Below, piece by piece: positions 145-17,339 of a DNA stretch of 17,671 nucleotides. Origin of the DNA: Methanobacteriota archaeon (GTDB lineage Archaea; Thermoplasmatota; Thermoplasmata; SG8-5; JAGLSY01); the NCBI GenBank assembly GCA_020697715.1, contig JAEHCO010000012.1:1-17671 (forward strand), given 5' to 3'. The notes beneath the pieces were generated by a model. That model was not told the DNA's origin and did not search any database. It worked only from the letters and a program-made list of their open reading frames with translations. Position 1 is the first letter of the stretch, and every line of letters starts with the position of its first letter. The position numbers and the translations under genes were made by a program.

Positions 145-702
145 TCACCAGGTGTAGAAGTGCATCTTGACCTCGCCATCTCCACCGAATGCCAATGAAT
201 TCCATGAGGATGCATGAACTTCATCACCAAGTTCACTCTTGAAATTATCAAAGTTTGGTGCCATGTCGATGGAGGTCCTGTTCATCGACATTCTGATATT
301 GCCGTATTCTATCCAGAGGGCCCAATCGTATATTGGCTCCACGATGAGATTTGCCTGTATCGATATATTTTCATTGTAAGAGAGAAAATTATCAGGAGCC
401 ACATCCCCATCTTTTAGCAAATGTAATTCTTCCATTAACAGGAATTGCACACTAAGATTATTGCGGATATGGATAATATTGTAAGAGTCGATGTAGGATA
501 CCACCGGAATACTGGAACTCATCCATGCCAGCCGCACTTGGTCATTGTATTCCGCACTTTGATGATCCCTTATCAGTTCCGCACTATCTGACATGGTGAC
601 ACCGATCGTCAGAAAAAGGCCAGAAATGATGATCATGATGACGAAGAACAGCATCGCGTCTAGTAAGGACATCATGCCATCATCATCCCATCTTTTACTC
701 AA
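145..702 (-). CDS. Pilin-like protein with putative class III signal peptide (minor pilin)
   Basis: MSKRWDDDG|MMSLLDAMLFFVIMIIISGLFLTIGV: short charged leader, Gly, then a hydrophobic helix and a soluble domain. TTG start is preceded by a perfect GGAGGTGA SD that overlaps the upstream stop. Confidence 0.7.
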   Translation of the reverse strand: MSKRWDDDGMMSLLDAMLFFVIMIIISGLFLTIGVTMSDSAELIRDHQSAEYNDQVRLAWMSSSIPVVSYIDSYNIIHIRNNLSVQFLLMEELHLLKDGDVAPDNFLSYNENISIQANLIVEPIYDWALWIEYGNIRMSMNRTSIDMAPNFDNFKSELGDEVHASSWNSLAFGGDGEVKMHFYTW

Positions 703-708
703 TTTCCA

Positions 709-1260
709 TCACCTCCATATTGCCACCACCAGGAAGCTGGCTCTGTAATTTCCATCCGCATCCTCGACAACCACTGGTGTGGATTTCGAATATACGTCCA
801 CTCCAATAGGGCGATCCTCGGTGTTTATGGGCCCAAAATTCTGTCTATCGCCATGTATCGTCTCAATGTATTCACTTCTATCCAGCAACAATATTTGATA
901 TTCGAAATGCTTCAGCTCTGGTGTGAATTGATATTTCCAATCATCGATATCTGTATTGTTGAATGCCCGCCCGTTCAATACACCTTCCTGACTCAATGTG
1001 ATATTATTCCAGTTCAGTATCTCATTTGAAAAGTTATTTAGATTATCCAGCATCAGCGTGCTCTCATTGAACCTATTGTATGCCCCATAGACGATGATGG
1101 TGTTTGTTACGAACAATCCCACGGCAAAGAGAATGAATAATAATTTTGGCAGATCCTCAAAGAATCCAGCGACTCCATTATTATTGATACACAGTCTATT
1201 CTTTCTTCGCACTCCATATGATCTATTAGACCTCTGCCATCTCCTCATTTTTTGCATCAT
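709..1260 (-). CDS. Pilin-like protein with putative class III signal peptide (minor pilin)
   Basis: Basic leader, then ...INNNG|VAGFFEDLPKLLFILFAVGLFV, an amphipathic helix and a terminal beta strand (ASFLVVAIWR). Start moved from 1290 to ATG 1260 (AGGT just upstream; avoids overlap with the VWA gene). Confidence 0.7.
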   Translation of the reverse strand: MMQKMRRWQRSNRSYGVRRKNRLCINNNGVAGFFEDLPKLLFILFAVGLFVTNTIIVYGAYNRFNESTLMLDNLNNFSNEILNWNNITLSQEGVLNGRAFNNTDIDDWKYQFTPELKHFEYQILLLDRSEYIETIHGDRQNFGPINTEDRPIGVDVYSKSTPVVVEDADGNYRASFLVVAIWR

Positions 1261-1264
1261 CGAT

Positions 1265-3061
1265 TTACCTACTTTCTCTATCGAATGCATTACAATCGTA
1301 GCAGAACCATCGTTTTGAATTTCCCAGGAAGGTCAATGGTTTTTTGCATTTGGCACATTTGTTCTGGAAGTTTCCTTTCTCCAGATATTTTTTACAACTG
1401 TCGCAATACCATCTACCATATTTGCCCAAGAATGAAGCATGCTGGCCACATTTCTTACAGTAAACCTCTGTTGGATCAGTCTTGACCGCCTTGCCTCTTA
1501 TGGAATAGAGATCGAGAAGTTCTTTCGACCCATGAATTTTAAATTCGACAGCGAAATTCGAGAATATATCGATCAGGTCATCCGTATCCTGGACCTTATG
1601 ATATTCCCCACCTGTCTTATTCGCGATCGTCATAAGGAATTCTTCATCAACGCTGTCTCCGTAACCCAGTGTGTTGATGATCATATCTTTTCTGGGGACT
1701 ATCCTTCTATCGACTATCTGAATACATTCTTCCATATTTTCAGGCTTACCATCCATCAAAAGTACGATCATCTTGTGTTTTTGATGATCGAGTTCCTTTG
1801 CCACTTCAATTGCTTTTATCAAGCCATCTTCTAGATTTGTCAGACCATGCCAGTTCTTGGCTATCTCGCCCAGCATGGCTTCGCCAAATTCCGCTATTGG
1901 GACTGCCGAGCTACAACTATGCGTCCCGTTGGGAAATTTAACAGGAATGCCCTCATCACTGAAATAGACCATGCCAAAGGCATTGTTCTGTCTCTTTATT
2001 TGAGAATAATTCAATACCGCCAAGGCCGTCCCATCAATTCTGGACACCAATTCCTTGTCGCGCATCCTTTCTATCAGAACAGTTCCATGTTTATTTGTGA
2101 ATTTTGATCCGTTTGCTTCTATTATTTCATGTGTCTTATCACCTATCACCATATCCTCTGTATCCATACTACCTGAAAGGTCGACCATCAGGATACTGTC
2201 GTAACCATTCAGTTTATTGTGCCTAGTGTTGGGAGAATTCTGAATTTCATTGGATTTAGAAATGTTCCCGCCCGATGATTCTGGTTTTGTACCAATTGTA
2301 TCTGACTGCCTCTTGGGAGAAGATGCAGATTTTTCCTTAGTTTTCTTACCTATAGAGAGTATTGTCGAACAATTGGTGCATTTATCTGAGTTCGGTGGAT
2401 TTATTGTTCCACAGACTGGGCATTTGATCTCCTGCTCGGTACTCGGTTCTTCGATTTCTATTATTACACTTGTATTATCGGCTACCACGACATCTTCGAT
2501 GTTCTTATTACCTGAAAGATCGGCCATCGGGATATTGTCATGATCATCCTGATCGGGCCAAGTGTAGGAGAAATCCTGAATTCCATTGAATTTGGCAACA
2601 TCCCCATCTGACAGTTCTGGTTTTGTATCAATCACACTCAATTGAATATCCAGTTCTTTCAGGATAAAAGAACTGCCCTTTTGAAAAGCTTTATTCTTCA
2701 TTAATTTGATTAAAATATTCTCTTTTTCCCTCACTCTCTGAAGAACATCACCTCTTTTCTTAGAACCGACCATATTCTCTATTCCGAGATCTAGAGAATT
2801 TATCTGGACCAGATTTTCCTGGTAGATATTCGTGTCCATCTTTGCCCCATCTTCGATTCCATTGGACAGCATTAGCAGAGAACTCACTCCCACAGTGCCA
2901 GATTCCATATCGCTTTGAACCTCCACAGTTCCCAGGATCCTATTACCTGTCGATGTCTGTGTGAGAGATATCAGATCTCCCGCATTCACTCCTAAATTTG
3001 ATGCATCATTAGGGTTGATCACAATATCTCCTTTATTTGATTCCACAATGCTAAGTTCCAC
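1265..3061 (-). CDS. Cytoplasmic multidomain protein: CDC48/VAT N-domain-like + zinc ribbon + VWA + two C-terminal zinc ribbons
   Basis: N-terminus IVINPNDASNLGVNAGDLISL...GTVGVS...GIEDG (double-psi barrel-like) and LMKNKAFQKG...LSVIDTKP (CDC48 subdomain 2-like); CPVCG..N....C.NC; intact MIDAS (DLSGS, GLTNL, LLMDG), INTLGYG, IANKTGGEY; CKKC...RWYCDSC and CAKC...RWFCYDC. GTG start with GAGGTG SD 6 nt upstream. Confidence 0.85.
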   Translation of the reverse strand: MELSIVESNKGDIVINPNDASNLGVNAGDLISLTQTSTGNRILGTVEVQSDMESGTVGVSSLLMLSNGIEDGAKMDTNIYQENLVQINSLDLGIENMVGSKKRGDVLQRVREKENILIKLMKNKAFQKGSSFILKELDIQLSVIDTKPELSDGDVAKFNGIQDFSYTWPDQDDHDNIPMADLSGNKNIEDVVVADNTSVIIEIEEPSTEQEIKCPVCGTINPPNSDKCTNCSTILSIGKKTKEKSASSPKRQSDTIGTKPESSGGNISKSNEIQNSPNTRHNKLNGYDSILMVDLSGSMDTEDMVIGDKTHEIIEANGSKFTNKHGTVLIERMRDKELVSRIDGTALAVLNYSQIKRQNNAFGMVYFSDEGIPVKFPNGTHSCSSAVPIAEFGEAMLGEIAKNWHGLTNLEDGLIKAIEVAKELDHQKHKMIVLLMDGKPENMEECIQIVDRRIVPRKDMIINTLGYGDSVDEEFLMTIANKTGGEYHKVQDTDDLIDIFSNFAVEFKIHGSKELLDLYSIRGKAVKTDPTEVYCKKCGQHASFLGKYGRWYCDSCKKYLEKGNFQNKCAKCKKPLTFLGNSKRWFCYDCNAFDRESR

Positions 3062-3261: not shown

Positions 3262-3705
3262 ATGAATAATCTAAGAACTAAATTTAGTATCCATAAGGGC
3301 TTGAGGGAAGATAATGGTGGCGTACTTGGCCTACCACTAAATCTATTGATCATGGTTGTGATTGCAGCTGTAGCGATAGGAATTATATTGTCATGGATGT
3401 TTCTTTTGACACCGCCTCTGGAATACATAGAGGTAACACCGACAATGGTCAATGATGTTGGCACTGCCAATACATCTTTTGACGTAGAGATCATCGCACA
3501 CAATGACAAGGGAACAATGAGTGGTTGTGAGATAACTATTGATGGCGCAGGAATAGATATGAAAGCTATCACAGGCGATGATGGTTCATACACATTTGTA
3601 GGCGTCACACCTACATTACCCCCGAACACGAACTCGGATTTTATCCAGGTTACTGTGTCCGGTGGCGGTAATGTTGTCACTCAAAGTATCGCAGTGAACA
3701 AATGA
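3262..3705 (+). CDS. Archaeal pilin-like protein (candidate major pilin) with a carboxypeptidase-regulatory-like beta-sandwich
   Basis: LREDNGG|VLGLPLNLLIMVVIAAVAIGIILSW class III-like signal; C-domain GCEITIDG...AITGDDGSYTF. First gene of the operon; ATGA overlap with the next gene. Confidence 0.8.
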   Translation: MNNLRTKFSIHKGLREDNGGVLGLPLNLLIMVVIAAVAIGIILSWMFLLTPPLEYIEVTPTMVNDVGTANTSFDVEIIAHNDKGTMSGCEITIDGAGIDMKAITGDDGSYTFVGVTPTLPPNTNSDFIQVTVSGGGNVVTQSIAVNK

Positions 3706-4211
3706 GACCAATAGACAGGAGGGGGATGGAGGGATTCCCCCTAAACCTTCTGATAATGTTCATTGTCGTTGCCATGATAGTTCCAATATCCTGGAATTAC
3801 CTCGAGGTCTATTCCACGCGGCAGACCCAACAAACAATAGATACTCAATTGAGCTACCTGGAATCAGCAGTGAGAGAGGTGTACTCCATGGGTCCCGGAA
3901 ACTCAAGGGTGGTGGACATGGATATACCAGGAGGAGTGGTGGCCGATCTGGAATATATGCGTATTGGCGGAGCTCCGAATGACGTATGGTCTAATCTATC
4001 CAGCTTCAGATACAGCATCAATGGCGGCGCGGAACAGTATTACATGATCACGGATCCCAATATCGCGATGGTGAATATGACGGGAGTTTTGGAATTCAGT
4101 GAAGGACACAAGAAGATAGAGGTCCGAACACTGGATGAGTTAGTTGAAGGAGATCTTGATGGAGATGGAGCCAAGTATTCGTGGGTGGTGGAAGTGAGAC
4201 TGGTCTATTAG
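3702..4211 (+). CDS. Archaeal pilin-like protein (minor pilin)
   Basis: MRPIDRRG|MEGFPLNLLIMFIVVAMIVP signal; helix ending VYSMGPGNSRVV; clear paralogue of the N-domain of 4257..9635; DLDGDG loop near the C-terminus. Confidence 0.8.
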   Translation: MRPIDRRGMEGFPLNLLIMFIVVAMIVPISWNYLEVYSTRQTQQTIDTQLSYLESAVREVYSMGPGNSRVVDMDIPGGVVADLEYMRIGGAPNDVWSNLSSFRYSINGGAEQYYMITDPNIAMVNMTGVLEFSEGHKKIEVRTLDELVEGDLDGDGAKYSWVVEVRLVY

Positions 4212-4256
4212 ATGATTAACAATAAGATTCAGATAAATAATTAATGAGATGATAAA

Positions 4257-7200
4257 ATGGGACGAGGGATTGGAAGAGACCGGGGAGGTATCGAAGAGAT
4301 ACCTATGAAATTACTCGTTATCATGGTCGCTGTGGGCTTCATTGTCCCAGCAGCATACCATGGCATGAGTGTGAATGCACAGAATCAGACCAAGACTGAT
4401 TTGCAGGATGCTATGGACGAGCTGGTGACCGCCATACGTTTTGTATATGGTCAGGGTACATTGGAAACAAGGGAGGTCACTCTCGATCTGGGCAATTCAA
4501 GATTTTCCGATCTTGGACCTATAATAATAGGAGATCGGATAGGAGAACATCCTGGGGTTAACCAATCCACAATATCGTACAAATATGGGTCTGCGTGGGA
4601 GCATGTCGTTGTCACTGATCCGAACATCCCGATAACATCTCCAGACAACAGTGCTCTGATATTGGATGGGTATGATAAATGGGAGCTCGTGATCCAGAAG
4701 GACACGATAGGCTTCACAGATTTTGTCGTTGTCAGGGTCAAGGGCCAGGAAGGCGAGGTTCAGATGCCAGATCTGTACGTGGGCTCCATTTCGGTTCTCA
4801 ATAATCCAATAGAGGGTGGCTATGAAGTGGATGATGATACCTGGCAGGAGTATAAACCCGAGATGTTAACTCCTTTTGTCCCGCCCGGATATTCACTTTC
4901 TGCTGTCATTAAGAATATCGGTAACCTGGGCACGGATGATCCGGATGCTAAATGGAACGATGGCATAGGTGAGGATGATGGAGTTATAAGAGTTAGATTT
5001 ATTGATTACATAATTGATAAAAATGAGACCAGGCAGATAGGGGAACCAGTAATTATCACAAATCTCGCTCCAGATGAGGAGATCACGATCACGGCGGATC
5101 AACCATGGAGGGTGGTGGATTATCTGTATAGAGACTGGGCATTTGATAGAGAATTGCTTAATAGGAAGATAATCGCCCAGGTGGATTATATCGAATATGA
5201 CATCGATGTGGAGAACCAGACGAGCAACATAATAGGTGGCGACAATATTGATGAGATCGATGGGGAGAATAATAACAGGGAGTATTTGCACATTGAGATC
5301 CCCCCAGTGATCAATTCGGTAGAGGCTGAGTATGATGATCCAGATCCTGGAATAGGAGTATTTGTCCAGGGCATTGAAGTGTTCAATAAGTTCACCATAA
5401 ATGCGACCGATGAGAACGGTTTCGTATGGCAGATCCTCATGTGGTACAATGGGGATGAACTTTCCATTGAGGTACCTGCGGATTGTGATATCCCCACTCA
5501 GGTGCTCATGGAAGAAGCTCGAAGGGGGAACTTCTTCACGACCTACATCGACATGGGTGGAATAAATGGAACTTCCAATCTCACAATAGCCGCGATTGAC
5601 AATGCAGGTGTTGGAAGTGACCCTTATGAAACCTCTATTTACATAGAACTCCCACCACGCTGGATGGAGAACACTGATGATCCGACAAGGGCGACTACCA
5701 GCAGAGAAACTGGAACACAATCTCGAACCTTCACACCCAGTACATCCGGGAATGCAACTGGGGGTAATGGTCCTGTCAAAGCCCAATTGAATTATTTCAC
5801 ATTGATATTGGAGCTTCCTCAAACTCTCAATGATGGTAAGAAGGCCGATGCTTCAGGGGATACACCATATGTCAGTGGTCAGGAAAATAAACAATCTGAG
5901 AAGTATGTGTTGGAATTAAAGATACCCATAGGTGGCGAGATATCTTTTGGGAAGGAGAAAACATTGGAATCGACAGTCATGGGCATGGAGGTCACAGGCA
6001 CAGCAGGTGTTGAAGCTTCTGTGAATGTTGGATTTCCAGATATTGAGATCAATCTGACCAAGATATTCGACCTTATCAAAGAAGGGAAATACCTGATAAC
6101 TAATTGGAAGCAGTTCGGCCCTCTTCTCAAAGATGTGAAGGTCAATGAAGGAACGGTTCTGGAAACAACAGTTGGTGAACTGTGGAAAAAGGTACTGAAA
6201 CCTGATAATGTGGCTGATTTGATGAATGCTCTCAATCAGACGAGGAATGCGGCTGAGAACGAGTCCGCAAATACTTCATCGGATTATAGTGGGATCACAG
6301 ATGCTATATCCAATATTGTAGAGATAGTTGAGGAATATCAGGCAACCTTCGAAACCCTGAAAGAAGTTTGGGGCACTGTCATGAATATTGCTGATAATCC
6401 GGCAAGCTTACTGGATCTGGTGAGTTTCGAGGCTCGGGTGTACGCGTCCCTTGAAGTTATGAGGGAATGGCAGATATTCAGTGCCAAATACCCCATATTC
6501 CCTCCATTTGTCATGGCATCTGTTGATGTGAGCGCGGCTTTTTCAGCAGTGGCAGATACAGAAGCAAAGATATCAGCAACTTTGTCAGGTGTTAAATTTG
6601 GTCAGGTTACAGCCACATTCACTCTGGGTCTTGGCCTATATTTAGTTTGCGAATTTAATATAGGAGTGAACTTCGGGATAGCCGGAGGTGGAATGTTTGG
6701 AAGAATAATCGGAAATCCGAATCTTGCTTTGACAACAGGATTCACTTATGACACTCCGACTATCGGTATCGATGGAACGACAGCTGGTGGTTTTATTCCT
6801 GTTTGTAATGGTGCCCTGGACGTATCCCTGATGGCAGAAATTGGAGCTTACGTTGAATTCCTGTGGTGGAGGAAGGATTGGACCTTCTACAAGGACGTTT
6901 TCCAACTTGGCCATTGGAGTTTTGATGTTTTCGAAGGTACGACGGAAATACCCCCAATATATGTTCCACCCGAGCAGGATCTGGATGCGATGGCAGAAAA
7001 GGATGGTACTATAAACTTCCCCAGAGGTCCGGCAAGTGCGACTTTCGATGGCAAGACCATAGTCGTGACAAGTAAGGATCTCAACAATGATTTCCTAAAT
7101 CCTAATTATCAGATACAGGCCAAGGCGGATGGCCCGGCCATGACCCCCTCTGATATTCTGACGACCAATAATAGGCTCAAGGTCGATCCTAAAGTCATAT

Positions 7201-9635
7201 ACAACCATACTGGCTCAGCATTCGTTGTCTGGACAGAAGCAGTGACCAATCAAGATCTAACATCCACCACCATCGGCCTCACGAATTTCATGAACGATGC
7301 TGATATTCTGTATGCCATAATCGATGAGAGCAATGTGGTGATATCAGGACCCGATCCCATTTATTCAAAACCAGCTGGCACATCTGATATGCAGACCAGC
7401 ATGGTATTGGCGAATGATGACAATATCACACTAACGTGGATCTCTGACACTGATGGTGATATGATGTCCACCGGTGACCAACGCACGATGTTCTCCATAT
7501 GGAATGGCACCAATTGGAGTGCCCCCGTGGTCAAGTTCTGGCATGCTAGTTTCCATTATGATAACAAGATGGTCAATTTGCCTAATGGTGATATTATGTC
7601 CACCTGGATAAGGGATGGCGACGAATATTTCAACACAACACATGACCAACAGATCGTCTATTCTATTTACAATGGCACCAATTGGACGGATTACAAATAC
7701 ATCACGAATGACAATCTCAGCGTGAAATCAACCTCCCTTGCGATAAATGGTGACAATATAATTCTTGTCTGGCATGCTCAGGATTGGGAATTCGACAGTT
7801 ATATAAGATACTGCACCTGGAACACTGTCACGGAGACCTGGTCAACCATCGAGTTGGTCAACTACACTACCAGGCCAGTGCAACTCCCCCAGGTGGTGGT
7901 GAACCAGGATGGTTTGGCCGCTGTAGTGTGGAAGAACAATAAGATAATCGATATTGACAATGTGACCTATTCAGGTATTTATTATTGCACTATCGATCTA
8001 ATGAGCGATCGGTTGTGGACGAAGCCAAGGCTTGTGGCCACCACAAATGCGCATTTCCTTGATTTCAATTGCGATACTGAATTGATAGAGAGAAATACCA
8101 TAATCTACACTTATAACAACCTGACAACTCCTTATGATAGGAGCACGGAGGAGCAAGTGTCCATCAATATCTACTTCAGACCAGATATGGGGGTCAGTGC
8201 ACTTTCTGTGAATGGGAATCACTCGAATATCATCGCCAAGGAAGACGAGATCGTCCAGCTAGAAGCCACGATACAGAATACAGGAGACCTTTTCACACAG
8301 GCCTTCAATGTAAGCTTCTATGACGGAGAACCAGAGGCAGGAGGTACATTGATCGAGAGTGTTCCAGTATCTTCCATTGGCCGTTTTGATATGGTGAATG
8401 TTTCCATAGATTGGGAGGTGCCTGGTGGCATCCATAATGTGTTCGTCATTGCCGATCATGAGAATAAAATCTCTGAAATTGTCAAGAACAATAATAGGCT
8501 CAATTGCACCATCACTTGCCCGATAGACCTTTCCATAACCTTTGATAATATTGATTTGGATCCAGAGTATCCCAATCAAGGCGAGACCGTGACCATCACC
8601 GCCATGGTCAGGAACGTGGGCTACACTTCCGCCTCTTTTGTCAAGGTGGAATTTTATGATGGCGATCCGACCGTGGATGGCAAGCTATTTGATACAGAGA
8701 CCATCAGTTATCTGGATATGGATGAAAACGCGACCGTGACCGCTTACTGGGTCGCGGATCTGGGCGCTCACGAGCTCTTTGTATTCCTCAATATCAGTGA
8801 TCTGATACCAGATAACAATTTGGCTTTCAGGAGGGTTTCCCTTGTGACTGATATATCTATAAAAGATATATCAGTAAATCGAGCTCTCATAAATGAAGGG
8901 GAGAAAGCAACTGTTTCTGTAACTCTCCAGAATGATGGAAAGGCCGATTCTGATTCTGTCTTCGTCAAATTTTACACATATGACGACTTCATCGATGGTA
9001 AGTTCATATCACTCGATCATGGAGAAACAGGTTCTGTTTACATAGAGTGGCAAGCTCCGGTGGGGAATTTCCAAATATATGCCGTGGCCTTCCCAACAGA
9101 TAATATAATGGAGATCGAGGAATCAGAGAATAAAAGGTCAGTACATCTGGCAGTTCTTACTTCCAAGGATCTGACCATTGGCATGATACTTGCCGAGCAT
9201 GATAACGGCATACTGAACATCACGACCAATGTATCAAACATTGGTCATGGTGACCTGACAGGAGTGGAGGTCGATCTTTATGGTAGTTATGATGCAGGCA
9301 ATGACACATTGCTTCATTCTTTCAATATCACGAAGATGGATGAGTCCTCCCAGTACCTTTTGTATTATGAGTGGGCGGCTCCAGTAGGGACAAAAACAGT
9401 GTATGCCACCGTGGATCCGATGGATCGCATAAGTGAGATGGATGAGAATAATAATCAAGCATCTGAGAGATTGGATTTTGGAACCTGGGCAAGTGATGAT
9501 GGCCAGGATACAGATGATGATGGAACCATAGATGCAGTATATGCAGTGTCCATGATCGGGATATTGCTATTGGTATTAGTGGTATTGGCCATGTCCTTTA
9601 TCAAGAAGCGTAGAGGAGATAGGGAAGAAGAGTAA
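4257..9635 (+). CDS. Giant pilin-adhesin fusion: N-terminal pilin domain, CARDB and Ig-like domains, propeller-like repeats, four tandem CARDB domains, C-terminal TM anchor
   Basis: GRDRGG|IEEIPMKLLVIMVAVGFIVP signal; CARDB signatures (PDL....i.N.G....V.F.....E....NN) at about 4767-5300 and four times at about 8181-9470; C-terminal AVYAVSMIGILLLVLVVLAMSFI followed by KKRR; many N-x-S/T sequons. Confidence 0.85.
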   Translation: MGRGIGRDRGGIEEIPMKLLVIMVAVGFIVPAAYHGMSVNAQNQTKTDLQDAMDELVTAIRFVYGQGTLETREVTLDLGNSRFSDLGPIIIGDRIGEHPGVNQSTISYKYGSAWEHVVVTDPNIPITSPDNSALILDGYDKWELVIQKDTIGFTDFVVVRVKGQEGEVQMPDLYVGSISVLNNPIEGGYEVDDDTWQEYKPEMLTPFVPPGYSLSAVIKNIGNLGTDDPDAKWNDGIGEDDGVIRVRFIDYIIDKNETRQIGEPVIITNLAPDEEITITADQPWRVVDYLYRDWAFDRELLNRKIIAQVDYIEYDIDVENQTSNIIGGDNIDEIDGENNNREYLHIEIPPVINSVEAEYDDPDPGIGVFVQGIEVFNKFTINATDENGFVWQILMWYNGDELSIEVPADCDIPTQVLMEEARRGNFFTTYIDMGGINGTSNLTIAAIDNAGVGSDPYETSIYIELPPRWMENTDDPTRATTSRETGTQSRTFTPSTSGNATGGNGPVKAQLNYFTLILELPQTLNDGKKADASGDTPYVSGQENKQSEKYVLELKIPIGGEISFGKEKTLESTVMGMEVTGTAGVEASVNVGFPDIEINLTKIFDLIKEGKYLITNWKQFGPLLKDVKVNEGTVLETTVGELWKKVLKPDNVADLMNALNQTRNAAENESANTSSDYSGITDAISNIVEIVEEYQATFETLKEVWGTVMNIADNPASLLDLVSFEARVYASLEVMREWQIFSAKYPIFPPFVMASVDVSAAFSAVADTEAKISATLSGVKFGQVTATFTLGLGLYLVCEFNIGVNFGIAGGGMFGRIIGNPNLALTTGFTYDTPTIGIDGTTAGGFIPVCNGALDVSLMAEIGAYVEFLWWRKDWTFYKDVFQLGHWSFDVFEGTTEIPPIYVPPEQDLDAMAEKDGTINFPRGPASATFDGKTIVVTSKDLNNDFLNPNYQIQAKADGPAMTPSDILTTNNRLKVDPKVIYNHTGSAFVVWTEAVTNQDLTSTTIGLTNFMNDADILYAIIDESNVVISGPDPIYSKPAGTSDMQTSMVLANDDNITLTWISDTDGDMMSTGDQRTMFSIWNGTNWSAPVVKFWHASFHYDNKMVNLPNGDIMSTWIRDGDEYFNTTHDQQIVYSIYNGTNWTDYKYITNDNLSVKSTSLAINGDNIILVWHAQDWEFDSYIRYCTWNTVTETWSTIELVNYTTRPVQLPQVVVNQDGLAAVVWKNNKIIDIDNVTYSGIYYCTIDLMSDRLWTKPRLVATTNAHFLDFNCDTELIERNTIIYTYNNLTTPYDRSTEEQVSINIYFRPDMGVSALSVNGNHSNIIAKEDEIVQLEATIQNTGDLFTQAFNVSFYDGEPEAGGTLIESVPVSSIGRFDMVNVSIDWEVPGGIHNVFVIADHENKISEIVKNNNRLNCTITCPIDLSITFDNIDLDPEYPNQGETVTITAMVRNVGYTSASFVKVEFYDGDPTVDGKLFDTETISYLDMDENATVTAYWVADLGAHELFVFLNISDLIPDNNLAFRRVSLVTDISIKDISVNRALINEGEKATVSVTLQNDGKADSDSVFVKFYTYDDFIDGKFISLDHGETGSVYIEWQAPVGNFQIYAVAFPTDNIMEIEESENKRSVHLAVLTSKDLTIGMILAEHDNGILNITTNVSNIGHGDLTGVEVDLYGSYDAGNDTLLHSFNITKMDESSQYLLYYEWAAPVGTKTVYATVDPMDRISEMDENNNQASERLDFGTWASDDGQDTDDDGTIDAVYAVSMIGILLLVLVVLAMSFIKKRRGDREEE
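7431..7690 (+). repeat. Intragenic 168-nt (56-aa) repeat, beta-propeller-blade-like
   Basis: AATGGCACCAATTGGA is identical at 7503-7518 and 7671-7686; TGACCAAC occurs at 7475 and 7643 (both offsets 168 nt). Protein: TWISDTDGDMMSTGDQRTMFSIWNGTNW vs TWIRDGDEYFNTTHDQQIVYSIYNGTNW. Confidence 0.8.
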
Positions 9636-9651
9636 TCCAGGAGTGATCATT

Positions 9652-10269
9652 ATGGCAAAGAAGGCAGCTGAACCAAAAAAATCGACAACGGATAAAAAGA
9701 AAGTCGAAGCATTTTGCAATCACAGTATTGAGACATCCACGGTGGAGATGCGTCTGGTCTTTGATTGTAAGGAATGCCCAGTGGATGCAGATCTGAAAAA
9801 TAAACAATGCCTGAAAGGTGTGTTGTCCGCATTAGCAGACAACTACAATGCAGACAATGTAGTGCTGAGCGATTATGCAGAATTGAGGTACTCGGGACAA
9901 TCCATGAAGATGCTGAAGACCCTCATAGATCTCTCCAGTGAGATCGAGAATCTCTCATTACGGAATCCTCCCAGGGAATATTTCAGCGATATCAAGAGCC
10001 AGGGTGTGAAGGATAAGAGAAGAGCTACTTGCAATAGCTGCAAGGCCAATCCCCAGGTCATCTTCTCGCGTATGAAGAAGACTTTATTGGAGGATATTGA
10101 AATATTCTACAATGATTTCCTTATCTCATCTAAAGCTGTCAAGCAAACAAGAGCGGCTGAATGCCAGGCTTGTGTCAAGACCACGGAAGAGGCCCTGGTC
10201 TATGTTTTCAATCTTACTGAAGAGCTCAGAGCCTTCCTGTATTATGAAGGATTCAGTGTGGTCATATAG
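9652..10269 (+). CDS. Cys-rich (8 Cys) cytoplasmic protein, probable metal-binding partner of the assembly ATPase
   Basis: C...CKEC...C and CNSC...CQAC; no TM segment. AGGAGTGA SD at 9639-9646 favours ATG 9652 over GTG 9643. Confidence 0.75.
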   Translation: MAKKAAEPKKSTTDKKKVEAFCNHSIETSTVEMRLVFDCKECPVDADLKNKQCLKGVLSALADNYNADNVVLSDYAELRYSGQSMKMLKTLIDLSSEIENLSLRNPPREYFSDIKSQGVKDKRRATCNSCKANPQVIFSRMKKTLLEDIEIFYNDFLISSKAVKQTRAAECQACVKTTEEALVYVFNLTEELRAFLYYEGFSVVI

Positions 10270-10280
10270 GGGTGAAATGA

Positions 10281-12401
10281 ATGGTGAAGATAATAGGTCA
10301 AGAAGAAAAGGAACCTGAAGACATTGACATAGACGATGATGATGAGAAAACGAAAAAGAAAGGTGTGAAGATCATCTCATCCGAAGAAACCGAGAGAGTG
10401 GCATCTCCCGAACCTATGATCGAGGCTGAGATTATTGACGAGCCAGTAATCATGGAAGAGCCTGTATTTGAGCCAGAGCCAATTCCCACTGCCCCATCTT
10501 CCGAGCCTATTTATGAGGAGCCAATCCCCGAACCAGTGTTCGAGACTCCAGAACTAATCGAAGAGGAAGCTCCTGGACCGATGATCGAATCCACACCCAG
10601 TGAAGCAAAACAAACAGGGATGACAACCCTGGATGATGTCATACTCTCTCTCGAGAACAAGGGACCGCTTGCAATAGATGCAAAGCGAGTTCACCGGGCC
10701 ATGATCGTGATAATGGAGAAGTACCATGACCTTCGTCCTGGATTCTCTTATTCATGGGTGACCCCAGAACCTCCAGAGAATTCCAAAAAGATACTGGAAT
10801 ATAAAGTGCAAGATGCGCTCGTGAGCCTGTGGCTGATCAAAGATTTCACTTATTCTCATTATCATATCAAACCTAAGGAATACTCACTCCCCTCGGACCT
10901 CATGAAACTTATCCATCTTGCCAAGATAGAACTATTGAGGAACCGACCAAGACATATTCAATTGGATAGGCCAGGTCAGGCTAGGCTATATGTGGAGAAC
11001 TTCGGAAAGAAGATCCTATACCAGATAGCGAACAAGCATTCTATCAAGATAGGAAATACACCCGAGGAAGAAATGAAAGTCCTGGATGATCTCACTTCGG
11101 TATTGGCCAGGTACACGGTGGGTCTCGGACTCTTTGAATATTTCCTCGAAGATCCATATATGCAGGATATTTACGTCGATGCCCCAGCTCCGAAAAATCC
11201 CATCCATGCCAGCATGGGTGGTCTCGCAAACAAAGAACTTTATGACAAGTTCGTTACCAATGTGATCCTGAGCAATGAGGACGTGGACAGCATGGTGTCC
11301 AGGTTCAGGTACGAAAGTGGCAGGCCATTCTCCGAAGCCATGCCTGTACTGGAAACTGATCTTGTCCAGCACCAAACCAGGGTGACAGCCATTGGGAAAC
11401 CATTGAGTCCAGATGGCATAGGCATAGCTTTCCGAAGACATTCCACTGATCCCTGGACCATGTTGAAGCTTATTGATAATGGAACTGTATCACCTCTTTC
11501 AGCCGGCCTTCTCTCCTTCCTAATTGAAGGACATTGTACCATGCTGGTATCTGGAAGTAGGGGTGCTGGAAAGTCTTCGCTTCTTGGTAGCCTACTTCTT
11601 GAATTCCCTACGATACAGAGGATATTGACCATCGAGGACACTCTGGAATTGCCAGTTCCAGAGATGCAGAAACTAGGCTATAAGGTTCAGAGGATGTTTG
11701 TCCAGTCCACTCTTGGAGGAAAGGGTGAGATGACTGCTGATGATGCCTTGAGAACTTCCTTGAGATTGGGCGAATCCGCCCTGATACTAGGAGAGGTCAG
11801 AGGCCAGGAGGCCAGAACCCTATACGAGGCAATGAGAACAGGAACCGCAGGATCATCGGTCATGGGAACATTCCATGCGGATTCTGCAAAGTCCACCTTT
11901 GAGAGAGCGACCAGTGATATGGGCATACCAGCGACATCCTTCATGGCCACTGACATCATAGTGGTCCAAACACTGACACAATCCAAAGGTTCTCAGAAAC
12001 TATTGAGGCGTTGTACCCAGATTGCGGAAACTGCCAAGACATCTGACGTTCCTGGTGAATTCAATGATCTGATGATGTATGATAGCGATAATGATCTGTT
12101 GATGGAGACCGATGTGTTCAATTACAAATCTGAACGTATTGGGGAGATCGCTAGGAAATGGGGCATATCCATGGAGGATGCTTTGAATGATATCAGGGTC
12201 AGAGCCAGATATCGATTGGATGCGGTCGAATATGCAAGAGAGCATGATAAACCGCAGCTTTTGAAGATCGAATGGGTCGCACGCATGAACAACAAATATT
12301 GGGCACTGCGTGAGAGTGCTATAAGTGATGGAGATCTTAATTTCAATAAGATCCTGGAACAATGGAGAAAATGGTTCCTGGAAGGTGCCAAGTATGCATG
12401 A
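10281..12401 (+). CDS. Type II/IV secretion (VirB11/TadA/CpaF-like) pilus assembly ATPase
   Basis: Walker A GSRGAGKS, Asp box TIEDTLE, Walker B LILGEVRG, His box MGTFHADS; LEDPYMQDIYV; own SD GGGGTGA. Confidence 0.95.
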   Translation: MVKIIGQEEKEPEDIDIDDDDEKTKKKGVKIISSEETERVASPEPMIEAEIIDEPVIMEEPVFEPEPIPTAPSSEPIYEEPIPEPVFETPELIEEEAPGPMIESTPSEAKQTGMTTLDDVILSLENKGPLAIDAKRVHRAMIVIMEKYHDLRPGFSYSWVTPEPPENSKKILEYKVQDALVSLWLIKDFTYSHYHIKPKEYSLPSDLMKLIHLAKIELLRNRPRHIQLDRPGQARLYVENFGKKILYQIANKHSIKIGNTPEEEMKVLDDLTSVLARYTVGLGLFEYFLEDPYMQDIYVDAPAPKNPIHASMGGLANKELYDKFVTNVILSNEDVDSMVSRFRYESGRPFSEAMPVLETDLVQHQTRVTAIGKPLSPDGIGIAFRRHSTDPWTMLKLIDNGTVSPLSAGLLSFLIEGHCTMLVSGSRGAGKSSLLGSLLLEFPTIQRILTIEDTLELPVPEMQKLGYKVQRMFVQSTLGGKGEMTADDALRTSLRLGESALILGEVRGQEARTLYEAMRTGTAGSSVMGTFHADSAKSTFERATSDMGIPATSFMATDIIVVQTLTQSKGSQKLLRRCTQIAETAKTSDVPGEFNDLMMYDSDNDLLMETDVFNYKSERIGEIARKWGISMEDALNDIRVRARYRLDAVEYAREHDKPQLLKIEWVARMNNKYWALRESAISDGDLNFNKILEQWRKWFLEGAKYA

Positions 12402-14460
12402 TGGTAAGGGATTGGAAAAGGATCTGCCACCCTATGGTGCATGGTATATTTCATTGTCAAGAAAAATATTGAGGTCAGCTGGCCCATCTGAAGCCGATAA
12501 AGATAAGAAACGCGAGGAGACCAGAACTGCCTTTGAGAATGCTGAAACTATAGCCAATGAAGCCTTTGAGAAGGTGAACGAGGCCAGGATACGCGGTGAT
12601 GACACCACCAGGGAATTCCGGAGTGCGGAAGCGAAATACAAGGAAGCCAAGAAAAAGGTCGAAAAGGCTGAAGCGGTATTCAAACAAGAAAAATTTCGAG
12701 CCTCTGTAGATTTCTTGAGTTGGGATATTGACGAATTCGATGTTTTGGCACTCAGTCAGATAATGACTCTGATAGTATTCGCCATAAATGCTGTAGCGAC
12801 AATTCCTATATTCATTATTTATGGAGCCAGCTCCCTAATGTACACCATACCCTTTGTTTTCATACTTCCTTTGATCGTGCTGGGATTTTTTGCTACATAT
12901 CCTGAAAGCCTTGCTCAAAGGGTTAGGATACAAAGCCTTGGAAGGGCACCAGAGGCCATAAATTACCTTGTGATGTCGATGCGTCTTTCACCCACATTGG
13001 ACAAGGCCATTATGTTCACTGGCAATCATACAGATGAGCCATTGGCATCTGAATTTAAAAAGCTCACATGGGATCTCATGATGAGAAAGTACAATAGCAT
13101 AGAGGATGGACTTGTTGACTTCGCATCCAGATGGGGGCAGTGGAATGAAGATTTCCGTAGAGCTTTATACGCTATCAGGACAGCCACATTGGAACGGACA
13201 GAAGAAGGCCTGAAACGCACACTTGATAAGGCGAATGACATAATCCTCACTGGAACCAAGACCAGGATGGAAGGCTATGCCGCTTCTTTGAGTGGACCAA
13301 CCATGATAGTTTTCGCTCTGGGAGTATTACTTCCATTGATCATGGGCTCCATGCTCCCTATGCTTTCAATGAACATGGGAGATATGATGAACTTCGATGC
13401 AACTGGCATAGAGGATACCATGTCCGGAGGTGCTAGCGTGGAGGAATACAATATTCTACCTATCGTACTTCTGCTGGATGTAGTATTCCCTGTCATCACT
13501 CTTGTTTATTCATATTATGTTCTTGGTAATAGGCCAGGAACTACGAGTCCGCCCGATATAGCATCTCCATTCACTACCAAACAAAAACGCTCTATTGGAG
13601 TTACCGGGGTGATCATCGCTATAAGTATTGGAATGCTGGGATTACCAGTGGTCTATGAAGCGATAGGTATCGATATATTCGGTGTGACACCGATAGTTGT
13701 CGGTATCGGGGTGGGGGCATCCTTCTATCTCGTGACCACGACCAGATATCAGAAGAAGAAGAGAGATGAAACCAAAAAACTCGAATCAGAATTCCCAGAT
13801 GCTTTATTCCAACTGGGTAGTCGTATCTCCGAGGGTGAACCATTGGAATCAGCTTTCCAGAAAGTTGCCGACACTCTCAAAGGTACGATGGTGGCTGAAC
13901 TTTTTGGCACCATATCTTATAATTTGAAGATGACAAGAGCGCCACTAAACGAAATTTTGTTCAATAGGAATATAGGCGTTCTGAGGAACGTGCATTCAAG
14001 GACAATAAGAGCCACCATGGAAACAGTGGTAGAAGCAGTCCAAAAGGATGCTTCTACAGCTGGCCAGACCATCGTCACCATATCCAATTATCTGAGGGAT
14101 ATGATCCAAGTTGACCAGGAAATAAAGAACTCTCTCAGCTCAGTTGTTGATATGATGAAGACGACCGCCATACTGTTCTCCCCCATTGTCATGGGCATAA
14201 CTATCGGGCTTTATTTCATGCTATACAATCAATTCCAGGATCTGCCCTTCACATCTTCAATGATGGATCCATCTGACTTCGTACTGATCATAGGTCTGTA
14301 TCTACTGATGGTGGTAGGGATAACTGGGTATTTCGCCGTGGGAATTCAGAATGGCATAGACACGATCGAGGCAAAGTATTCCATCGGAATATCCTTGCCG
14401 ATCGCAGCCATCACTTTCTCGATAGTTACAATTCTTAGTCAATCGTTAATGGGAGGTTAG
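12394..14460 (+). CDS. Type II secretion system F (TadB/TadC-like) membrane platform with two fused T2SSF domains
   Basis: Two cytoplasmic T2SSF repeats (APEAINYLVMSMRLSPTLDKAI...PLASEF and EFPDALFQLGSRISEGEPLESAF) and about 9 hydrophobic segments. Start likely ATG 12394 (GAAGGTG SD; 8-nt overlap with the ATPase stop) rather than 12325. Confidence 0.9.
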   Translation: MHDGKGLEKDLPPYGAWYISLSRKILRSAGPSEADKDKKREETRTAFENAETIANEAFEKVNEARIRGDDTTREFRSAEAKYKEAKKKVEKAEAVFKQEKFRASVDFLSWDIDEFDVLALSQIMTLIVFAINAVATIPIFIIYGASSLMYTIPFVFILPLIVLGFFATYPESLAQRVRIQSLGRAPEAINYLVMSMRLSPTLDKAIMFTGNHTDEPLASEFKKLTWDLMMRKYNSIEDGLVDFASRWGQWNEDFRRALYAIRTATLERTEEGLKRTLDKANDIILTGTKTRMEGYAASLSGPTMIVFALGVLLPLIMGSMLPMLSMNMGDMMNFDATGIEDTMSGGASVEEYNILPIVLLLDVVFPVITLVYSYYVLGNRPGTTSPPDIASPFTTKQKRSIGVTGVIIAISIGMLGLPVVYEAIGIDIFGVTPIVVGIGVGASFYLVTTTRYQKKKRDETKKLESEFPDALFQLGSRISEGEPLESAFQKVADTLKGTMVAELFGTISYNLKMTRAPLNEILFNRNIGVLRNVHSRTIRATMETVVEAVQKDASTAGQTIVTISNYLRDMIQVDQEIKNSLSSVVDMMKTTAILFSPIVMGITIGLYFMLYNQFQDLPFTSSMMDPSDFVLIIGLYLLMVVGITGYFAVGIQNGIDTIEAKYSIGISLPIAAITFSIVTILSQSLMGG

Positions 14461-14463
14461 ATA

Positions 14464-15906
14464 ATGACACAAAGGGTCATATTTGGAAGAACAGACAAGG
14501 ACATTGATAAATACGGCATAAGAGGCTGTGGCTATCTGGGTAAGATAGTCAGCTACCCAGCTGGGCGCTATGAAGAGATGGGCGAGGTTCAATTGGATCT
14601 GGCTTTTCCCCATTGTATGCTAGTTATGGGTAAGCGAGGTACCGGAAAATCATACACTCTGGGTGTCATGGCCGAGTCCTTCGGCATGATGGAAGCAGAA
14701 CAGAAAGATCGCCTATCTGTTTTGATAGTCGATACCATGAGTGTCTTCCATAGCCTGAAGACCGCTAATTCCAATGCTTATGAGGTAGATCGTTTGAAGA
14801 GCTTTAATGGCCTGACGCCAAAGGGAATGGGTGATTATGTACACATCCTCATGCCGGAGTTGGCAATAAAGGAATTGGAGAAGGCAGGACATGATGTCCT
14901 CTATGATCAGGTCTTACAACTCCCTCTGCATGAGATAAGTGTTCAGGACTGGCTGGATTTATTCGGTCTTACTATAACCGATCCTGTTGGCACTCTTTTG
15001 ATAAAGGTGATAAGGATCCTTCAGCATAAGAATGAACCATATGGCTATGAGGATGTTTATAGGGAGATCGATAATCAGAAAATGTTCGAAGGTGAAGGAA
15101 CCAAGGACAGTCTGAAGGGAACGATCCAAATGGTGGAGGATATTGGGGTATTCGGTAAGGAAGGAACACCCTTTTCCAATATTGTGAAAGCTGGTCGTAT
15201 GACCATTTTGGACATAAGTTATCTGGGACGCCTGGGTGGTTTTGATATACGTAATTTAATAATCTCAATCATAGCCAGTCATCTCATGCGGGCTAGGACC
15301 CTATACACCACATTGGAGATGCAGGCTGAGGCAAATCTCATAGATGAAGAAGTGGCCAAGGATATCACCAAGGAACATCCTTTAGTTTACATGATGATAG
15401 ACGAAGCCCATCTTTTCCTCCCGAACAAAGGCAAGACCATCGCCACTGATGCTTTGATAGATTGGATCAAATTAGGGCGACACCCTGGCCTTTCATTGAT
15501 ATTGGCCACTCAGGAGCCTTCTGCACTTCATCAGAGTGCGATAAAGCAAGCTGATCTGATTATCGCCCATAATGTCACTGCCGCACCGGATATAGAGGCT
15601 TTGAAGATGGCGAAGCAATCATACACATCTGGAACCAAAGACTTCGACAGGCTGGTTTCGACAATGGAATTCCGACGAGGATTGGCTGTCGTAATGGATG
15701 ATAAGACCAGGAAGATGGAGCTTGTCTGTGTTAGACCAAGAACCACTCTCCATACAGGGCTTGATGCTACATTGTTCCCTCGGGAAGACAAAGCACCAAC
15801 TTCTGAGGGAAAAGAAGCTGCTGGTAATAAGAAGAACAATTCGTCTTCCACAGCAAATGATTCAGACTTCGGTGATCTCTATGGTAAGAAAATAGGTGAC
15901 AATTGA
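14464..15906 (+). CDS. HerA/FtsK-superfamily (DUF87-like) P-loop ATPase
   Basis: PHCMLVMGKRGTGKSYT (Walker A), VLIVDTM, ILDIS, YMMIDEAH (Walker B), GRHPGLSLILATQEP; no TM segment; GGAGG SD; 3 nt after the platform gene. Confidence 0.9.
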   Translation: MTQRVIFGRTDKDIDKYGIRGCGYLGKIVSYPAGRYEEMGEVQLDLAFPHCMLVMGKRGTGKSYTLGVMAESFGMMEAEQKDRLSVLIVDTMSVFHSLKTANSNAYEVDRLKSFNGLTPKGMGDYVHILMPELAIKELEKAGHDVLYDQVLQLPLHEISVQDWLDLFGLTITDPVGTLLIKVIRILQHKNEPYGYEDVYREIDNQKMFEGEGTKDSLKGTIQMVEDIGVFGKEGTPFSNIVKAGRMTILDISYLGRLGGFDIRNLIISIIASHLMRARTLYTTLEMQAEANLIDEEVAKDITKEHPLVYMMIDEAHLFLPNKGKTIATDALIDWIKLGRHPGLSLILATQEPSALHQSAIKQADLIIAHNVTAAPDIEALKMAKQSYTSGTKDFDRLVSTMEFRRGLAVVMDDKTRKMELVCVRPRTTLHTGLDATLFPREDKAPTSEGKEAAGNKKNNSSSTANDSDFGDLYGKKIGDN

Positions 15907-17339
15907 TGCTGGATTTCGTCCTTTCCAAGATGACATGGCTTATAACTTCGATACTGGTCATGTCATTCATTGTCGGCTTCTATCAGATACAGGTTGACAC
16001 CATAGATGAGAACATGCTACAGGGTGCGACCCATGAAGTCGAGCGTGTGATCAAAAGATTGGATGGGATCAATGGAGAGATGAATGTCAATTTCACCTTT
16101 GACAGATATTATTCTTACCGTTCGTTCTACCTGCCTGGCAAGGTCGGGGGCGAGATCTATAAATTCTCATTCTATGAGAGCTATATCAGAGGCACGTCTC
16201 TTTCAGGAGATATCGACATACCCCTGCGATTTGGAACCAATATCCAGCCACTGCAGATGGGAAATCAGACCAATGTGGAATTGAATGAACTTCTTGAGAA
16301 TCCACAGGAATCCTATGTGAGCAAACTGACAGTTTATTCTAATCAGGATTTTGGAGTTGCCAGTCGTTATGTCGAGGGAGAGGGCTACAAAGTATTCGTA
16401 TTTTTGTTCACAGACACGGTATTCTATTCTGCGTCTGATGATGATGGAAAGCAATTACTGTATGGGAGCAGTGAGGCTCCAAAGATCAATAATATCACAG
16501 CCACACCAGACCCCCAGGAAATAGATAATATGATGAACATCACATTGGATGTGAAAGGCGATCATATAAGCCGTGTATTCCATTCCATCAAGGATCCCAA
16601 TGGGGAAATAGCGACCACGACAATGATAAAGGGCAATGATACAGAGTATTACTATGAGACCAACTGCACCATGGTTGGTGAATATTCATATAAAGTATGG
16701 GCTAGGGATGTATTTGGCCGTATAGACTTCACAGAAGACTGGCAGACATTCGATATTATAGACACTATGCCACCATTTTTGTACGATGTACTGATAAATC
16801 ATAATCCTCAGGAAAGCGGCGATAGGGTCATATTCTACGTTAGTGCTTCAGATGCCGATGCGGTGGAGAGTGTTTATGTAAATACCACTGCCCCCAATGG
16901 TGCTAAGAGACATTATAGCATGACCCCCACCACGGGAGATCGATGGACATTCAGTGTAGAGCTGATAGCCACTGGCGAATATTTCTACGATTTCTCCGCT
17001 GTTGATCCATCAGGGAACTGGAGGGTCATAGTTGGTTATTCATTCAAGATCGAAGATACTATTAAACCATCGATAGTTAGCTTCGGAGCTTCACCACTTT
17101 CCCAGATTGTGAATAAATCTGTATATTTCAATGCCACTGTAATGGACATCGTGGGCGTGAAATCCGTGACTCTCCAGGTATCTAGGCAGAACATCGGAAT
17201 GTTGCGTGTCAGCGGCGACCTGTGGTCCATAGATAGGTCCTTCTCCAAGGTAGGAACTTACATCTATGTCATTGTCGCCCTGGACGATAGCGGTAATACA
17301 AGGACAGTTTCCGGAACAGTGAATATCACCGATCCTTAG
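15906..17339 (+). CDS. Membrane-anchored pilin-like protein with three C-terminal Ig-like repeats
   Basis: N-terminal hydrophobic helix MLDFVLSKMTWLITSILVMSFIVGF followed by an amphipathic helix; three ~95-aa repeats (P.I.....P.PQE...G.Y.Y...A.D..GN; DTxxP junctions) from about 16479. TGATG overlap with the HerA gene and AGGTGA SD (TTG 15903 is an alternative start). Confidence 0.8.
   Translation: MLDFVLSKMTWLITSILVMSFIVGFYQIQVDTIDENMLQGATHEVERVIKRLDGINGEMNVNFTFDRYYSYRSFYLPGKVGGEIYKFSFYESYIRGTSLSGDIDIPLRFGTNIQPLQMGNQTNVELNELLENPQESYVSKLTVYSNQDFGVASRYVEGEGYKVFVFLFTDTVFYSASDDDGKQLLYGSSEAPKINNITATPDPQEIDNMMNITLDVKGDHISRVFHSIKDPNGEIATTTMIKGNDTEYYYETNCTMVGEYSYKVWARDVFGRIDFTEDWQTFDIIDTMPPFLYDVLINHNPQESGDRVIFYVSASDADAVESVYVNTTAPNGAKRHYSMTPTTGDRWTFSVELIATGEYFYDFSAVDPSGNWRVIVGYSFKIEDTIKPSIVSFGASPLSQIVNKSVYFNATVMDIVGVKSVTLQVSRQNIGMLRVSGDLWSIDRSFSKVGTYIYVIVALDDSGNTRTVSGTVNITDP

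Follow-up and report, generated by a model that had tools for sequence, protein, structure and literature searches.

Before assembly, type IV pilins are held in the membrane by their N-terminal helix; the filament grows from tip to base, which leaves the early subunits at the tip (PMC8179133). In the bacterial modular type IV pilins, such as S. sanguinis PilB and PilC, CofB/TcpB and GspK, further modules are grafted onto an N-terminal pilin module (PMC8179133, PMC5207764). The bulky ones fit only at the tip (PMC8179133). One of them is TcpB, which is paralogous to the major pilin and has been proposed both as the initiator of assembly and as a subunit that stalls the process on entering the growing pilus (PMC5207764). 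For archaeal filament loci, Makarova et al. (2016; PMC4858521) recorded large proteins with a signal peptide, described as "minor pilin or adhesin", and, separately, S-layer-like proteins with one C-terminal transmembrane (TM) helix; both occurrences of "C-terminal transmembrane" in that paper concern these separate S-layer-like proteins. Here we analyzed a stretch of 17,671 bases (the window), which is the entire contig C3 of a metagenome-assembled genome (MAG) of a Thermoplasmata archaeon (G000; 2.12 Mb, 93.8% complete). At 4257–9635 on the forward strand, it holds the gene of a giant modular pilin-like protein of 1792 residues (P0001) with a membrane segment at each end. We favor, with evenly divided confidence, the reading that the giant is a modular type IV pilin-like adhesin or minor pilin retained in the membrane, where it would tether or limit the filament. 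Window features lie on the forward strand unless stated otherwise.

The open reading frame (ORF) of the giant begins with ATG and its translation contains no internal stops. The Kyte-Doolittle (KD) profile (19-residue window) has only two strong peaks. The first (KD 2.23) is at residues 15–33, on a hydrophobic run of residues ~17–37, and the second (KD 2.93) at residues 1764–1782, within a run of residues 1760–1782 (9534–9602) that is directly followed by KKRR (residues 1783–1786). A weaker hydrophobic region, residues 747–810, does not exceed a KD of 1.56. Together with the basic cytoplasmic tail KKRRGDREEE, the second segment occupies 9534–9632 and follows an acidic linker (residues 1741–1757; 9477–9527), with the acidic stretch DDGQDTDDDGTID ahead of the helix. 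An acidic linker, a TM helix and a basic tail are a common ending of surface proteins in this genome (24 ORFs of at least 200 residues). No PGF motif was found by reading the final 60 residues. It is strongly indicated that both ends sit in the cytoplasmic membrane in an N-in/C-in topology, with basic residues outside both helices and ~1720 residues between them. Between the two helices, N-x-S/T sequons number 33, against 17.8 expected, an enrichment that fits an extracellular loop.

Five full-length relatives were found: P0002 (84% identity, contig C11 of the same genome), a protein of JAUWNU010000005.1 (~70%, 1792 residues), P0004 (49%) and the more distant P0005 (35%, 2175 residues) and P0013 (~33%, 1684 residues). 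Both membrane segments, namely the pilin leader with its helix and the C-terminal helix with an Arg/Lys tail, are present in six of six full-length proteins, P0001 included, on six contigs; P0003 and P0016, which end mid-protein, stand outside this count. Since they recur in every full-length relative, the two segments reflect more than chance. The presence of the C-terminal helix is constant while its sequence is poorly conserved (71, 60, 40, 14 and 17% identity); conservation is highest in the pilin head (94, 78, 63, 33 and 33%). The central region of the giant was found in four of the 22 genomes of the order and in five of the 401 sampled genomes of the class. The family is rare and small, with six full-length members among the sequences examined here, and no relative of its middle module is known.

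The same comparison bears on the concern, raised in the initial annotation, that the gene is an artefact, i.e. a chimeric contig or a read-through that joined a pilin gene with the gene of a surface protein. The contig is a short one (17.7 kb) from a MAG, and another copy, 84% identical, is present on C11 of the same genome, both of which could invite misassembly. Nevertheless, the same unbroken architecture, with no internal stops, occurs on six contigs of different sources (C3, C11, JAUWNU010000005.1 and the contigs of P0004, P0005 and P0013), and we regard the chance of an artefact as negligible. The initial annotation was also right in placing a membrane segment at each end of the protein, in locating the C-terminal helix and KKRR tail at 9534–9612 after an acidic linker, and in reporting no archaeosortase PGF motif; its suggestion to ask whether homologues keep both anchors is answered by the six of six that do.

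It is strongly indicated that residues 1–168 form a pilin module, paralogous to the small 169-residue pilin encoded just upstream (3702–4211). In BLASTP, residues 8–144 of the giant matched this neighbor with 30% identity (E 1e-17), and the alignment spanned the neighbor from its leader through its last strand. The module begins with the leader and a conserved processing/assembly motif (MGRGIGRDRGG / IEEIPMKLLV, residues 1–21; 4257–4319), which align with the leaders of small family pilins. The α1 helix (residues 17–65; 4305–4451) is supported by the KD peak, the AlphaFold model and the family profile, and its first ~21 residues are membrane segment 1. The head is a β-sheet (residues 66–168; 4452–4760), for which we have AlphaFold strands at residues 71–161 and a weak DUF7311 match. 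The AlphaFold model of the N-terminal part (residues 1–470, from a seven-row alignment) shows the helix followed by the strands in the arrangement of the pilin "lollipop", an α1 of ~50 residues with an antiparallel β-sheet, at block-mean predicted local distance difference test (pLDDT) values of ~51–83 over residues 11–170. Foldseek against the PDB with the same 470-residue model gave only non-specific immunoglobulin (Ig)-like matches.

A profile built from seven pilin modules and searched against 1.84 billion proteins (E ≤ 0.001) retrieved 233 representative proteins. Among the 150 family members listed, 139 were shorter than 250 residues, each having a hydrophobic helix at the N-terminus, and the other 11 were longer. 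DUF7311 matched 48 of the 121 small members scanned (E ≤ 0.01), and the neighboring 169-residue pilin scored 25.2 bits. By sequence, the family of the giant is related to DUF7311 and falls short of formal membership. We found no paper under the name DUF7311, and NCBIfam holds no family for the giant or for the small pilins. The small-pilin profile aligned α1 with residues 4–55 of bacterial type IV pilins (8tob, E 1.8e-4; PilE1 8pfb, E 2.2e-3), with geopilin and PilA as further, weak matches.

The short charged leader ends in Gly and precedes a hydrophobic segment of ~20 residues (MGRGIGRDRGG / IEEIPMKLLVIMVAVGFIVPAAY); relatives have Gly or Ala at the aligned position, and the leader would be cleaved after G11. 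The leader of the giant carries the motif G-x-E-x-[ILMF]-P-[LM]-[KN]-L-L, whereas the family leader reads as a basic residue, G/A and [VIL]-E-G-[LIMF]-P-L-[KQR]-L-L, with the conserved motif G-x-E-G-[ILMF]-P-L-[KQR]-L-L. A regular expression for the leader motif and the hydrophobic run matched only six ORFs in the 2.12-Mb genome: the three consecutive genes 3262–3705, 3702–4211 and 4257–9635, and their three counterparts on C11. That the giant and the two small upstream pilins have the leader motif in common points to common handling by one machine.

Several observations weigh against the favored reading, and some of them suit a different one, in which the giant is a static envelope protein with two anchors, its pilin-like helix being only a signal-anchor, cleaved or not, that never enters a filament. 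Such a protein could be a looped surface adhesin or a collar- or stator-like scaffold round the machine, comparable to FlaF/FlaG of the archaellum. The canonical archaeal class III pattern of the FlaFind type has a charged residue, G/A and then hydrophobic residues at +2 to +4. The leader of the giant, with E at +2 and G/E at +3, does not match it, and we would call this N-terminus class III-like, not canonical. The initial annotation, which had described a class III-like signal plus a pilin domain, is thus borne out for the pilin module by BLASTP, AlphaFold and the profiles, and not for the canonical class III pattern. Moreover, the "system 2" loci hold pilin-like proteins without a class III signal peptide (SPIII) motif (PMC13705601), because of which cleavage of the giant is uncertain; these loci also contain membrane proteins thought to be machinery parts (PMC13705601), which speaks for a static anchor. 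The N-terminal model was only moderately confident (mean pLDDT 53.8 over the 470 residues), its VIA-align matches covered mainly residues 96–350 and not the pilin domain by itself, and DUF7311 (PF23993) matched the giant at 16.3 bits (E 0.015; profile positions 16–140 of 150), below the gathering cut-off of 27. Finally, the gene of P0013 (locus L020, G066:C30, 8362–13416) is not beside any filament genes, so that any link to a machine would act in trans; its flanks are an ABC-transporter/FtsX-like cluster and a membrane protein resembling winged helix-turn-helix proteins. This separation fits a static anchor too, as does the recurrence of at least two membrane segments in the giants, which is expected of resident membrane proteins. 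It is the pilin head, however, that is the most conserved part, and it is a full-length paralogue of the small pilin family, whose leader motif is exactly common to the giant and its two small upstream pilins. We therefore consider a static anchor possible but rather doubtful, and we retain the reading of a membrane-retained pilin.

The pilin module was also found in other giants. P0019, P0052 and P0073 (1750–2201 residues) have no C-terminal helix, and instead carry mid-protein clusters of strongly hydrophobic helices, followed by FG-GAP repeats. In BLASTP, P0019 and our giant had the pilin module alone in common (E 2e-19; all else E > 0.3). Since giants of the P0019 type share only this module, membrane segments have been joined to it in non-homologous extensions. 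On contig C22 of G000, two adjacent giant frames (217633–223185 and 223149–228563; 1851 and 1805 codons) have canonical Pilin_N starts (E 4.5e-11 and 1e-7), and neither has a C-terminal hydrophobic segment. Giant modular pilins thus seem common in this genome, and the two Pilin_N giants show that a C-terminal anchor is not general to its big pilins.

These proteins also bear on the alternative of a released tip adhesin, according to which a protease or a sortase-like enzyme removes the C-terminal helix and the protein rides the tip of an ordinary long pilus. Bulky modular pilins were modeled at pilus tips (PMC8179133), the acidic linker ahead of the helix would be accessible, and the genome has two Exosortase_EpsH-family (archaeosortase-like) genes (C1:6040–6318 and C11:131248–131616). 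On the other hand, the giant has no PGF motif of the PGF-CTERM (archaeosortase-substrate) type, and the family has no common motif before the helix: DFGTW is found in the close relatives, with unrelated sequence in P0005 and P0013. Nor can the internal hydrophobic bundles of P0019, P0052 and P0073 be clipped from an end, and the giant Pilin_N proteins of G000 have no C-terminal anchor to be released from. We find such release improbable. As a separate observation, at least one surface protein, in a 529-codon frame on C22, ends in ...APGFELMTILV...RRRK, a possible PGF-type sorting signal of a kind that the giant lacks.

Behind the pilin module, the giant carries ~1590 residues of surface modules. 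Residues 169–349 (4761–5303) form an Ig/CARDB-like β-sandwich, which is modeled over residues 172–349 and for which VIA-align returned Ig-like domains at Z 7–9, including the CARDB domain 3idu at Z 7.9, all middling scores. A poorly modeled domain (residues 350–470, pLDDT < 50) and a linker rich in Thr, Ser and Gly by composition (residues 471–510) follow at 5304–5786. Next are the central module (residues 511–898; 5787–6950) and a repeat-rich region (residues 936–1300; 7062–8156), read from the sequence, with recurring motifs of the type W-x-G-T-N-W. To the eye this region may be β-propeller-like; it has no significant Pfam family, with one weak match (DUF5633, E 0.071), and a PDB sequence search with residues 931–1310 gave no match. 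Four CARDB repeats, of approximate limits, occupy 8157–9476 (Pfam CARDB, E 6.7e-36; 123 bits against a cut-off of 22.7, in four stretches, the best at residues 1532–1628). The protein thus has the CARDB repeats of adhesin-like proteins and, with the Ig-like domain behind a pilin module, the make-up of a modular pilin. The AlphaFold parsing that the initial annotation had proposed yielded the pilin lollipop, the Ig-like sandwich and the central module of helices and β-strands.

The central module was modeled from residues 495–900 with a shallow eight-row alignment (mean pLDDT 63.7). The model comprises a helix bundle (residues ~600–721) and eight long amphipathic β-strands (residues 561–591 and 722–890), which are 14–27 residues long and alternate between hydrophobic and polar residues. 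In the strand 752–775, for example, the two alternating sets of residues have a mean hydropathy of 2.5 and −0.87. When the model was compared with 48,161 chains in VIA-align, 48 of the 50 entries listed, classed by their titles, were outer-membrane β-barrels or complexes holding them, at Z 7.6–10.4, values that are middling for such a comparison. Foldseek against the PDB gave nothing clear (TM-scores ≤ 0.23), the ESM Atlas search with residues 495–900 reached a best score of 0.89 with no named cluster, and Pfam has no family for the module. The long antiparallel amphipathic strands of the model superpose on parts of outer-membrane β-barrels (autotransporter translocators, CymA and TonB-dependent transporters), and these proteins have no sequence relation to the module. 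We know of no archaea that make β-barrels of the outer-membrane type, and we treat the likeness of the predicted module to such barrels as a lead, not a finding.

If the lead were followed, the filament motor could act on a captive subunit, with the pilin end pushed out, the C-terminal helix held, and the central β-module inserting in a second membrane. The machine would then erect, tension or length-limit a giant looped adhesin, and the second membrane would be either the archaeon's own outer membrane or the membrane of a partner cell. Methanomassiliicoccus luminyensis is reported to have two membranes, and M. alvi one membrane and no wall or S-layer (PMC10673518). For an archaeon, it would be most unusual to link a membrane-inserting β-structure with a pilus motor, and we rate this version as a long shot.

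The initial annotation saw the giant as a pilin fused to a formerly independent C-anchored surface protein. Stand-alone relatives of the pilin module abound in the small-pilin family, but we found no pilin-less relative of the extension in the 401 genomes of the class, and for this reason the fusion idea is half supported. Among proteins of 30–984 residues, none was related to residues 500–1300 at E ≤ 0.001 in a word-based search of limited sensitivity. The four strong near-length matches (P0002–P0005) all have the pilin module; this check did not extend to the weaker near-length matches P0006–P0010 (E 1.9e-41 to 8.9e-6, 11–30% query cover). A stand-alone N-terminal form was considered for locus L002 (JAEHCQ010000002.1) and rejected. 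There, a 350-residue homologue (9100–11053; 77% identical) corresponds to a truncated N-terminal part of the giant gene, whose frame stops after residue 348. It lies beside a 79-residue fragment of the 185-residue gene and a small pilin of 146 residues, and no large ATPase or platform ORF follows, as judged by eye with no family search. L002 looks like a decaying locus.

The neighboring genes provide a type IV context for the giant, with T2SSE and T2SSF genes downstream of it and a prepilin-peptidase candidate elsewhere in the genome. Upstream, the 169-residue DUF7311-like pilin at 3702–4211 is preceded by a pilin-like protein of 147 residues (3262–3705), identified by the leader motif that it shares with the giant. 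Downstream, a Cys-rich protein of 208 residues without a membrane segment (9643–10269), conserved in related loci, is followed by a type IV filament assembly ATPase of 706 residues with a long N-terminal extension (10281–12401; T2SSE, E 3.2e-24). This FlaI/TadA-like ATPase matched the NCBIfam models FlaI (E 2.4e-38) and TadA (E 1.2e-36), each below its cut-off. The TadC-like platform protein is a single 711-residue gene (12325–14460), with a T2SSF score of 25.2 bits, exactly the cut-off; its listed GTG start overlaps the ATPase gene by 77 bases (12325–12401), and the true start may be further downstream. The peptidase candidate is a polytopic protein of 322 residues (C11:316483–317451) with a GGADAK motif, inside which Arc_PepC_II matches at C11:316515–316751 (56.5 bits).

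Directly after the platform gene, the operon encodes a HerA/DUF87-like ATPase (14464–15906; HerA_C, E 3.9e-9; DUF87, E 4.7e-7), which is 92% conserved in the C11 copy. The archaeal filament-locus literature, in the excerpts used here, has "HerA" only as a superfamily name. The last gene (15903–17339) encodes a candidate minor pilin of 478 residues that combines a hydrophobic helix at the N-terminus with Ig-like domains (Big_3_4, Big_13). Divergent genes at 145–3061 on the reverse strand encode proteins of 185 and 193 residues with pilin-like N-termini and a 598-residue protein (1265–3061) that contains several zinc ribbons besides a vWA domain. The latter, divergent from the pilin genes, recalls the vWA regulators tied by Makarova et al. 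to archaeal pilus loci.

A second copy of the entire operon (window 3262–17339) lies at C11:334742–348782 (L010), with protein identities of 65–92% (84% for the giant). Contig C3 could represent either a genuine second locus or a related strain that was binned together with this one. In C11, a distance of 37 kb separates the operon from the three divergent upstream genes (385923–388577), and their arrangement in the window instead matches that of the MAG locus L001. As to the organism, identity as a methanogen was rejected, as the 93.8% complete genome gave no MCR_alpha match.

For the favored reading, a membrane-retained pilin that tethers or limits the filament, we propose the following course. 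The leader would be cut by the FlaK/PibD-like peptidase of the genome, and the ATPase/TadC machine encoded downstream would incorporate the pilin module as a minor subunit of low copy number. The giant would be either the first subunit to enter, initiating the tip after the example of TcpB/CofB and bulky modular pilins, or the last one, placed at the base. The initial annotation reasoned that a second anchor should block free extrusion, and this follows from established assembly biology (PMC8179133). With a C-terminal helix that is not extractable, a filament containing the giant would have a mechanical link to the membrane. In the tip position, the giant would let the filament grow no longer than the contour length of its ectodomain, by our estimate some tens of nm, giving a short stub; at the base, it would cap growth and anchor the filament. 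Under either placement, the CARDB and repeat modules would serve as an adhesin exposed on the cell, which probably has no S-layer.

Type IV subunits are defined by being pulled from the membrane, and a conserved, non-extractable second anchor would be a natural experiment on how a filament is started, stopped and fastened. Wall-less Thermoplasmata must attach without an S-layer, and the giant suggests a coupling of the filament motor to a giant adhesin. Termination and anchoring subunits are known for sortase pili. FlaF/FlaG, with a pilin-like N-terminal helix on a β-sandwich protein, stay in the membrane beside the archaellum machine; unlike the giant, they are small and S-layer-binding, and they lack an anchor at the C-terminus. 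For type IV filaments, we found only proposals of termination or anchoring, namely for TcpB (PMC5207764) and for TadG of bacterial Tad pili (cited in PMC4858521). TadG contains a vWA domain whereas the giant has none, and the vWA protein of the window is separate and on the opposite strand.

In its plan, an N-terminal pilin module with grafted modules, the giant agrees with the bacterial modular type IV pilins. The likeness extends to paralogy with a small (probably major) pilin, to a gene encoded with the machine, and to the expected role of a low-copy minor pilin and adhesin. In contrast to them, the giant is archaeal, belongs to a DUF7311-like family and ends in a TM helix with a basic tail. 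Its 1792 residues compare with 860 for the largest modular pilin cited here from PMC8179133, the main text of which does not contain the word "transmembrane". In the main-text passages and abstracts covered, we came across no pilin described as carrying a conserved membrane anchor at its C-terminus. Neither modular pilins nor the large adhesin-like proteins of archaeal filament loci are new in themselves; it is the conserved second anchor that appears to be. The closest described archaeal loci are the euryarchaeal clade 2 or "system 2", with an extended ATPase, a single platform gene, pilin-like proteins with and without SPIII, and "large adhesin-like proteins" (PMC13705601, PMC4858521), and the window locus resembles them, a resemblance only. 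Compared with the loci described by Makarova et al. (2016; PMC4858521) and by Sivabalasarma and Albers (2026; PMC13705601), the giant joins the pilin start and the C-terminal anchor in one polypeptide.

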